Source: Escherichia coli (GTDB lineage Bacteria; Pseudomonadota; Gammaproteobacteria; Enterobacterales; Enterobacteriaceae). Taken from it: a DNA stretch of 64,000 bases. Below the pieces are notes generated by a model that was not told the origin of the DNA, ran no database searches, and saw only the letters and a program-made list of their open reading frames with translations. Location: the NCBI RefSeq assembly GCF_024298765.1, contig NZ_CP101210.1. One strand, written 5' to 3'. Shown piece by piece: positions 25,101-26,102 of this stretch. Position 1 is the first letter of the stretch; each line of letters starts with the position of its first letter. Made by a program: the position numbers and the translations under genes.

Positions 25101-26102
25101 GTCCCGTTCCCTGTGTGATTAATTCGTCCCGGCTTCCTGCCGCATCCTGAAGCGCAGATTCTTTTTAATTTCAGCCCAGCGCGTCATATCAGCCGGGGTC
25201 AGCGGTGTGGTTCGGGCGTAGGTGAAGGCCATCATGACCCGCTCACCCGGCAATACAAATGCCACCTGACACTGGTACACCTGCTCGTTACCCCGGAGAA
25301 ACTGGCTCTGTATTTGCAAACCGCCTCATTGAGATAATATTCCGTCATAATAGAAGTCGTCCTTTTTAATAAATGAATTATTTATTGACAGGTTCTGTTT
25401 TTTAATCATGAATGTAATGTCTATCACCGCTTTACAGCACTCTTTATCTTTCAAGCCGTAATCACTAATAACATTAAGCAATTACCCATATTTACAATGA
25501 CCGGAACTGATATGCCGTTATGTATTTAACAATCCCAACATATTCACCATACAAATAAAATCACGAGTAACAAACACACTACCGCCTCCATATAAAAAAT
25601 GGACAGCTTATAAAATTGCATCTTGCATAGAAAGGGCTGAGATATCGAGTGTATTTTAATTATCAACTATAAATGTTGAATATTTTCATTAACAGAAACA
25701 CATCTTATCCCATTAGATATGTTAACAATCAATTATTCTTAACATATCACTAAAGTATATATTACTCTCTTTACTATCTGTTTTTATTGCGGTAGCGATA
25801 TTAATAGCAAAATTCGGAATTTATTTAGATGCTGGAATAAGAAAAAGTGATGGCGGCTTTCTCACCTTACCCTGAAGTTTCAGGAAAGTGTGTAAGGAAG
25901 GATGCAACCTAACTGGAGATTTCTGAGGATCTAGTTGCTTAGAGCGACAATGAAGGTGAACGCATCCAGAGTAGTCCTATGAAAGGATACTATTGAAAAT
26001 TGATGCTAAAACAGTGATTAAATGAACAACACCATGGAACCCGTTGATTCAAAACGCCTAAACCAGCCCCCTGATACGAGGCTGGCTTAAACGCGCAGGC
26101 AA

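Follow-up and report, generated by a model that had tools for sequence, protein, structure and literature searches.

The interval between ybfA and rhs in the analysed stretch of Escherichia coli DNA (the window, 64,000 nucleotides) very probably forms the upstream border, on the ybfA side, of an accessory Rhs toxin island; a minority of E. coli carry this island at the ybfA-ybgA (RhsC) site. By its sequence, the 66-codon ORF abutting rhs is identified as the C-terminal remnant of a gene for an Eag/DUF1795 (DcrB) chaperone of type VI secretion (T6SS), the partner of the adjacent prePAAR-Rhs gene. From ybfA to rhs, the interval contains the ybfA terminator, about 620 bp of element-specific AT-rich spacer, a relic of vgrG, the former vgrG-eag intergenic region, the eag pseudogene and an intact rhs gene (Table 1). 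The genes ybfA and rhs and the eag remnant all lie on the minus strand. The region derives from known Eag-prePAAR-Rhs modules and is an ordinary, explained feature.

Table 1. Features of the ybfA-rhs interval and its flanks (window coordinates).
Feature	Coordinates	Strand	Basis and remarks
rhs, intact, 1552 aa	20442..25100	-	ORF list; Pfam PAAR_motif, DUF6531, RHS_repeat, RHS; RefSeq RHS repeat-associated core domain protein
eag 3' part, pseudogene	25119..25318	-	Codons 85-150 of the intact 150-aa protein plus stop; corresponds to the 66-codon ORF
eag 5' stub	25319..25348	-	ATG (25348-25346) plus 9 codons (MTEYYLNEAV); global and multiple alignments to the intact gene
Former vgrG-eag intergenic region	25349..25397	-	Shine-Dalgarno-like AAGGA at 25360-25364; alignment to L006
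vgrG 3'-end relic, about the last 10 codons	25398..25428	-	blastn against L006 and L012
Element-specific AT-rich spacer	25429..26045		No detectable gene; single copy; better-conserved core 25701-25880; IS target in other strains
Near-perfect 33-bp palindrome (GATATGTTAACAAT / ATTCTTAACATATC)	25716..25748		Inverted repeat, 14-nt arms 93% complementary; inside the conserved core
ybfA intrinsic terminator	26046..26094	-	RNA fold: 17-bp stem followed by UUUU; core DNA, marks the core/element boundary
ybfA (DUF2517)	26103..26309	-	Pfam DUF2517, E 1.2e-33; RefSeq annotation; core flanking gene

The eag pseudogene and its rhs neighbour

The original prediction had described a 66-codon ORF next to rhs and proposed that it might be the 3' remnant of a deleted upstream gene. 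Such an ORF is present at 25119-25319 on the minus strand, and comparison with Pfam and with other strains gave the upstream gene a name, eag. The translated ORF matched PF08786 (DcrB, formerly DUF1795) over profile positions 77-126 of 127, with an E-value of 1.8e-5. Its score of 25.3 bits fell just below the 27.2-bit cut-off because only these profile positions are left, while intact orthologues scored 68.2-68.8 bits against the same cut-off. Intact eag genes of 453 bp, encoding 150 aa, were found at the equivalent site directly upstream of rhs in strains 05-3629, EC10, MIN6 and 100416. Over its 66 aa the remnant is 97% identical to residues 85-150 of intact Eag, and the corresponding DNA is 97.5% identical to the intact allele. 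This region of the window is 100% identical to many E. coli chromosomes; in one of them, that of strain 104, PGAP labels 25119-25322 as a pseudogene, "DcrB-related protein, incomplete, missing N-terminus". A PDB sequence search with intact Eag returned zero hits at E < 0.001.

Where a gene of the PF08786/DUF1795 family precedes one for a PAAR-toxin fusion, its product is an Eag chaperone of type VI secretion (PMC7773334); PF08786 was the Eag model of the paper that defined Eag and prePAAR (Ahmad et al. 2020, PMC7773334). In the characterised systems, Eag stabilises the N-terminal transmembrane segment of the effector and loads the effector on the T6SS spike; one representative effector per prePAAR class requires its cognate Eag for stability and delivery (PMC7773334). 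The effectors themselves combine an AARxxDxxxH motif with N-terminal transmembrane segments and a PAAR domain (PMC7773334).

The rhs gene of the window encodes a protein of this kind. Its N-terminus reads MEEAFWAARQGDALLH and continues into a hydrophobic stretch (TMD region); AARQGDALLH, read from the translation, corresponds to the AARxxDxxxH motif. Beyond the TMD region the order is PAAR (Pfam PAAR_motif at residues 291-321), DUF6531, RHS repeats, RHS core and C-terminal toxin. The immunity gene is located at 20044-20424. Since the motif, the hydrophobic stretch and the PAAR, DUF6531, RHS-repeat and RHS-core domains are all present, the product is predicted to be a class I prePAAR T6SS effector. 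The eag stop codon (25119-25121) and the rhs ATG (at 25100) are 18 nt apart. On sequence and position, the eag fragment is thus assigned to the Eag family: it matches the profile and lies upstream of a prePAAR effector gene. The complete ORF of about 150 aa is missing, and as an intact gene the fragment fails.

The lesion in eag and the possible supply of chaperone in trans

Global alignment of the remnant (25119-25348) to the intact 453-bp eag gene opened a single gap of 223 bp, and the same gap appeared in multiple alignments. The junction lies at 25318|25319. The remnant part of the original proposal therefore stood, but the gene was not truncated at its 5' end; it underwent an internal deletion and kept its start codon. 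The PGAP wording "missing N-terminus" is imprecise for the same reason, as eag lost an internal segment and the 5' end is retained. Past the junction the reading frame shifts, and translation from the ATG stops at 25232 to give a 38-aa product, while the 66-codon ORF preserves the former C-terminal frame, for which a TTG happens to provide a start. Possible eag products here would be the 38-aa frameshifted peptide or, in the most favourable case, the 66 C-terminal residues initiated at the TTG.

The distribution of the lesion was followed with a 100-nt query centred on the junction. This query matched over its full length in 96 of 5426 complete E. coli genomes, and only up to 25318, half its length, in genomes with an intact eag. 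The figure of 96 agrees with an independent estimate obtained by subtracting the 49 genomes in which the deleted segment adjoins the spacer from the 145 with an uninterrupted spacer. An identical junction was also present in alleles whose spacers are 3-10% diverged from that of the window (R32_14_1F, 2A and GF3-3).

An identity profile against the intact allele showed an abrupt change at the junction: identity is 97.5% up to 25318, and 86.7% and then 76.1% right beyond it. This suggests that the two sides of 25318|25319 have different histories, for instance because a tract of gene conversion or recombination stops there. Instead of a simple intragenic deletion, the lesion may be a recombination scar. 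In that case, transfer or gene conversion would have kept a segment of rhs and the eag 3' part nearly the same as its other copies, and this segment would abut an older, diverged resident eag 5' end with its upstream DNA. Consistent with such an origin, the deletion alleles all have a distinct proximal flank in common but mosaic distal spacers (GF3-3 is an example), and at the junction itself the bases match neither flank of the intact gene. However, the stub follows the order of a normal eag 5' end and is collinear with it, so that a plain deletion followed by divergence fits equally well, and neither a breakpoint signature nor microhomology was identified. We regard a recombination junction as rather unlikely; a pseudogene results under either reading.

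The functional consequences of the lesion for this locus are all ones that we infer. The island would no longer be able to make its own Eag, a loss that in characterised systems destabilises the effector and abolishes its delivery (PMC7773334). The early stop of translation, 130 nt before rhs, may in addition lower rhs expression by polarity. In most genomes with the deletion allele, a near-identical Eag from a second locus can probably substitute in trans. In most genomes whose spacer is identical to that of the window, the deleted eag segment is present once, at another site: when this segment was added to the query, the matches in these genomes rose from one place to two. In strain CT30, which like APEC O2-211 is identical to the window in this region, an intact and 98%-identical Eag is encoded at a vgrG-eag-rhs locus adjoining ansP. 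The Eag proteins of the ybfA and ansP loci are 97-99% identical, and in Z1323HEC0477 an Rhs with the window-type transmembrane region is encoded at the ansP locus beside an Eag of this 97-99%-identical type. The second eag copies, the high identity of the Eag proteins and the pairing seen in Z1323HEC0477 together make supply of the chaperone in trans plausible. Redundancy of Eag would also account for the maintenance of the deletion alongside an intact rhs, although not in every case, because two deletion genomes, 2014C-3338 and GF131, show no second eag copy.

The Rhs proteins of the two loci were also compared. The N-terminus of the CT30 ansP-locus Rhs is 89% identical to that of the window, and all the differences fall in residues 28-90, in the transmembrane region. 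When the two coding stretches were set side by side (L012 9442-9801 against window 24741-25100), the proteins were near-identical over their first 367 residues save for this heavily substituted block. Residues 28-90 form the transmembrane region that Eag binds, and the block differs in CT30 despite the adjacent 98%-identical Eag.

The AT-rich spacer

The original prediction had also described the DNA upstream of rhs as AT-rich, free of ORFs and probably horizontally acquired, and the first two points were confirmed and the third was supported. Calculated per 200-bp window, GC content dropped from 0.57-0.66 inside rhs to 0.28-0.33 across about 25300-25900 and recovered to 0.50-0.53 at ybfA. The 707 bp from 25349 to 26055 have a value of 0.33, where rhs has 60%, ybfA 52% and the window as a whole 0.508. 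Only 0.7% of windows of equal length are as AT-rich, and nearly all of these come from the distal part of this rhs element. This distal part (window about 10500-20440, ending at ybgA) is itself of low GC content and contains two orphan rhs fragments that are truncated at the N-terminus and followed by small genes, along with three SymE-family toxin genes, one gene for an HNH/EndoVII-fold polymorphic toxin and several ISAs1/ISEc1 (H-repeat) copies or remnants. Outside the rhs element, the sole other low-GC stretch of the window is found at 34182-35198, downstream of the kdp operon (minimum 0.36). Between 25320 and 26100 the list of ORFs contained none of at least 60 aa, and none of those present is conserved. 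The longest, both on the minus strand, are a 51-aa ORF (25326-25481) that crosses 4-5-bp indels between allele types and a 40-aa ORF (25544-25666) that is frameshifted in five of seven alleles. The absence of ORFs carries no weight alone, since it is the chance outcome at such AT-richness.

The spacer (25350-26045) was detected in about 203 of 5426 complete E. coli genomes as a single chromosomal copy, which adjoined ybfA in every genome inspected and had no annotated feature beneath it. In the O157:H7 strain TR01, which carries another rhs type at the site, only the last 50 bp or so matched, and a three-way alignment placed the end of core homology at about 26046-26050, the foot of the ybfA terminator hairpin. 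By these comparisons the spacer is assigned to the variable rhs element rather than the core genome; the alignment to other strains revealed no conserved core sequence with an annotated function. Uninterrupted copies were present in 145 genomes. In about 58 others the spacer is split by ISEc1 (ISAs1 family) at either of two positions, equivalent to about 25574 and 25596 of the window, and in MIN6 it is also split by the IS5-like ISKpn26, with eag and rhs intact beyond the insertion. Insertions occupy positions 4719-5855 of locus L003, and 4720-5856 and 6640-7620 of locus L004. Because of the two ISEc1 positions and the additional ISKpn26, the spacer is an IS insertion hot spot.

Searches outside the E. 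coli chromosome gave no source for this DNA. Phage sequences contained no match to the spacer, and two 23-24-mers invariant among the E. coli alleles had no exact match in 100,044 species-representative genomes. The plasmid collection PLSDB returned only NZ_CP134663.1. This E. coli record of 4.9 Mb, which carries the ybfA-side spacer, is evidently a chromosome filed as a plasmid. A small difference between lineages was noted just inside the element boundary, by the ybfA terminator: at about 26035-26045 (compare L002, about 7180-7215) the window lineage is without 27 bp that are present in the six other aligned alleles. A perfect 13-bp inverted repeat (AACGTCTTCCATG-N8-CATGGAAGACGTT) thereby loses its loop and one of its arms.

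At the rhs end, the interval still contains a trace of vgrG. Positions 25326-25428 align to L006 with 79.6% identity over 103 nt (E 4e-21), an alignment that runs from the eag start across the intergenic region into the last 31 nt or so of vgrG; L006 and L012, the strain CT30 counterpart, are vgrG-eag-rhs modules adjoining ansP. The relic reads ..VIDITFMIK.. where VgrG ends in ..AIDVTFMNK*. The weakest rows of a sensitive spacer search lay under an annotated Vgr family protein in L006. A tblastn match of VgrG residues 641-663 to 25402-25470 is weak (39% identity, E 0.075) and would possibly extend the relic to 25470. The full VgrG protein used as a tblastn query over 25000-26200 found nothing besides the relic, and the spacer compared by blastn and tblastx with the rest of the window and with vgrG-eag-rhs loci gave only this vgrG 3' end. 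Upstream of eag, where a cognate vgrG would be placed in such a module, there are only about 30 nt of its 3' end. The vgrG-eag-rhs module probably lost nearly all of vgrG and later the middle of eag.

The spacer had further been put forward as the promoter or 5' region of the element, as a silencing target and as the site of a small RNA, and these proposals fared less well. A consensus scan found one sigma-70-like site in the spacer, against 4.0 +/- 2.2 in shuffled sequences. This site (-35 at 25405, -10 ending at 25377, minus strand) is not kept in intact-type alleles, which speaks against the promoter claim. As to silencing, H-NS prefers AT-rich acquired DNA. The spacer resembles H-NS-silenced acquired DNA in its 33% GC, its accessory distribution (203 of 5426 genomes) and its position before a toxin island, but differs in that the high-affinity nucleation motif TCGATAAATT is absent from it when at most one mismatch is allowed; AT-richness alone keeps it a plausible target that H-NS may bind. 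The claim of a small RNA found no support in a permissive Rfam search of 24900-26700, where the only match was a chance miRNA hit inside ybfA (E 0.4), or in a terminator scan, which detected none within the spacer. Sliding RNA-fold z-scores were unremarkable except at 25630-25749, with values of -3.2 and -3.5, one per strand. The combination of promoter, terminator and conserved structure was likewise not found. Small ORFs of at least 15 codons were compared on both strands in seven alleles. The majority are disrupted in one allele or another, and no convincing candidate emerged. In the literature, a Shigella sRNA paper naming ybfA deals with the ybfA/kdpA side and not with the spacer.

One part of the spacer is better conserved than the rest. 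Its core of 180 bp (25701-25880) is 96.7% identical to the diverged intact allele, against 76-91% in the flanks, and includes the palindrome listed in Table 1. The fold signal at 25630-25749 is a DNA-level feature, since both strands score alike and the palindrome accounts for it. The palindrome is not a conserved RNA helix, because three alleles have changes in one arm that the other arm does not compensate; it might bind a protein. Conserved core and palindrome hint at a function outside the main explanation.

This function could be that of a promoter or leader for eag-rhs, silenced by H-NS, with the core and palindrome as its control site. We consider such a role possible but somewhat doubtful. 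The 33% GC of this accessory DNA between flanks of 52-60%, the established preference of H-NS for DNA of this kind and the conservation of the core all fit it and, with vgrG gone and a strong ybfA terminator upstream, rhs needs a promoter in this stretch. Conversely, the deficit of sigma-70-like sites, the missing H-NS motif and the uncompensated change in the palindrome count against it, as do the roughly 58 genomes in which an IS lies between the distal spacer and an intact eag-rhs. A promoter or silencing role is what we would infer, reasonably, from the upstream terminator and the base composition, and it is compatible with the main explanation, the edge of an accessory Rhs island. Most likely, the AT-rich spacer is just untranscribed or leader DNA before the module, which may contain a weak promoter.

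The core also overlaps a 49-codon stop-free frame (25726-25875, plus strand) that would specify a hydrophobic peptide (..YILLSLLSVFIAVAILIAKFGIYLDAGIRK..). Its coincidence with the core, the fact that it is open in six of seven alleles, a membrane-helix-like stretch in the peptide and a weak excess of variable sites at third over first over second codon positions (5-6, 3-4 and 1-3 per 90 nt) are what an unannotated small hydrophobic protein would predict. As a gene, this frame was nevertheless rejected. It lacks a Shine-Dalgarno sequence and any of the starts ATG, GTG and TTG, and it has no homologue, as among 5.8 billion protein clusters none shares even three 5-residue words with the peptide. 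Genome annotations call no gene here, except for one hypothetical protein at an IS junction. With these results and the negative Rfam, terminator and fold searches, we judge it highly improbable that the spacer encodes either a small protein or a small RNA. Hardly more probable is that the core (25701-25880) constitutes a dedicated control element of the Rhs island, whether an operator for some regulator or a small membrane peptide with a non-canonical start. Were this the case, the core would gate the expression of an effector whose own chaperone gene is lost.

Significance and relation to known modules

Much of this was already known. RefSeq flags the pseudogene, the biology of the family is established, and the spacer gives no evidence of a new element; the importance of the result is limited mostly to annotation. 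What RefSeq lists as a "DcrB-related, incomplete" pseudogene gains a precise identity, that of eag with an internal deletion, and about 1.8% of complete E. coli genomes are seen to carry an intact prePAAR-Rhs gene beside a broken chaperone gene. The locus raises the question of whether one Eag serves Rhs effectors from two loci. For genome scans, it indicates that an AT-rich gap before rhs can be decayed DNA of a vgrG/eag module and is not necessarily regulatory.

The element resembles the RhsC element of E. coli K-12 and O157 in its ybfA-ybgA site, its orientation, its downstream orphan rhs fragments and its ISAs1/H-repeat elements. K-12/O157-type genomes, by contrast, share only the ybfA terminator (about 50 bp) with the window; their rhs has neither eag nor spacer, and in O157 the intergenic region at this site is about 240 bp long. 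Compared with the Eag systems EagR1-RhsA, SciW-Rhs1 and EagT6-Tse6 (PMC7773334), the eag gene of the window belongs to the same Pfam family and lies directly upstream of an Rhs gene with prePAAR, TMD and PAAR, and its intact orthologues are 150 aa long; unlike in these systems, it is a pseudogene with only 66 C-terminal codons left as an ORF. The vgrG-eag-rhs-rhsI modules on the ansP side of E. coli (L006 and L012) differ from the ybfA-locus module in that the latter has about 620 bp of unrelated AT-rich DNA in place of vgrG, of which a relic of about 30 nt is left. The two kinds of module nevertheless have the same eag-rhs-immunity order and strand, Eag proteins that are 97-99% identical, Rhs N-termini that are 89-96% identical, and a homologous region from the eag start to the vgrG stop.
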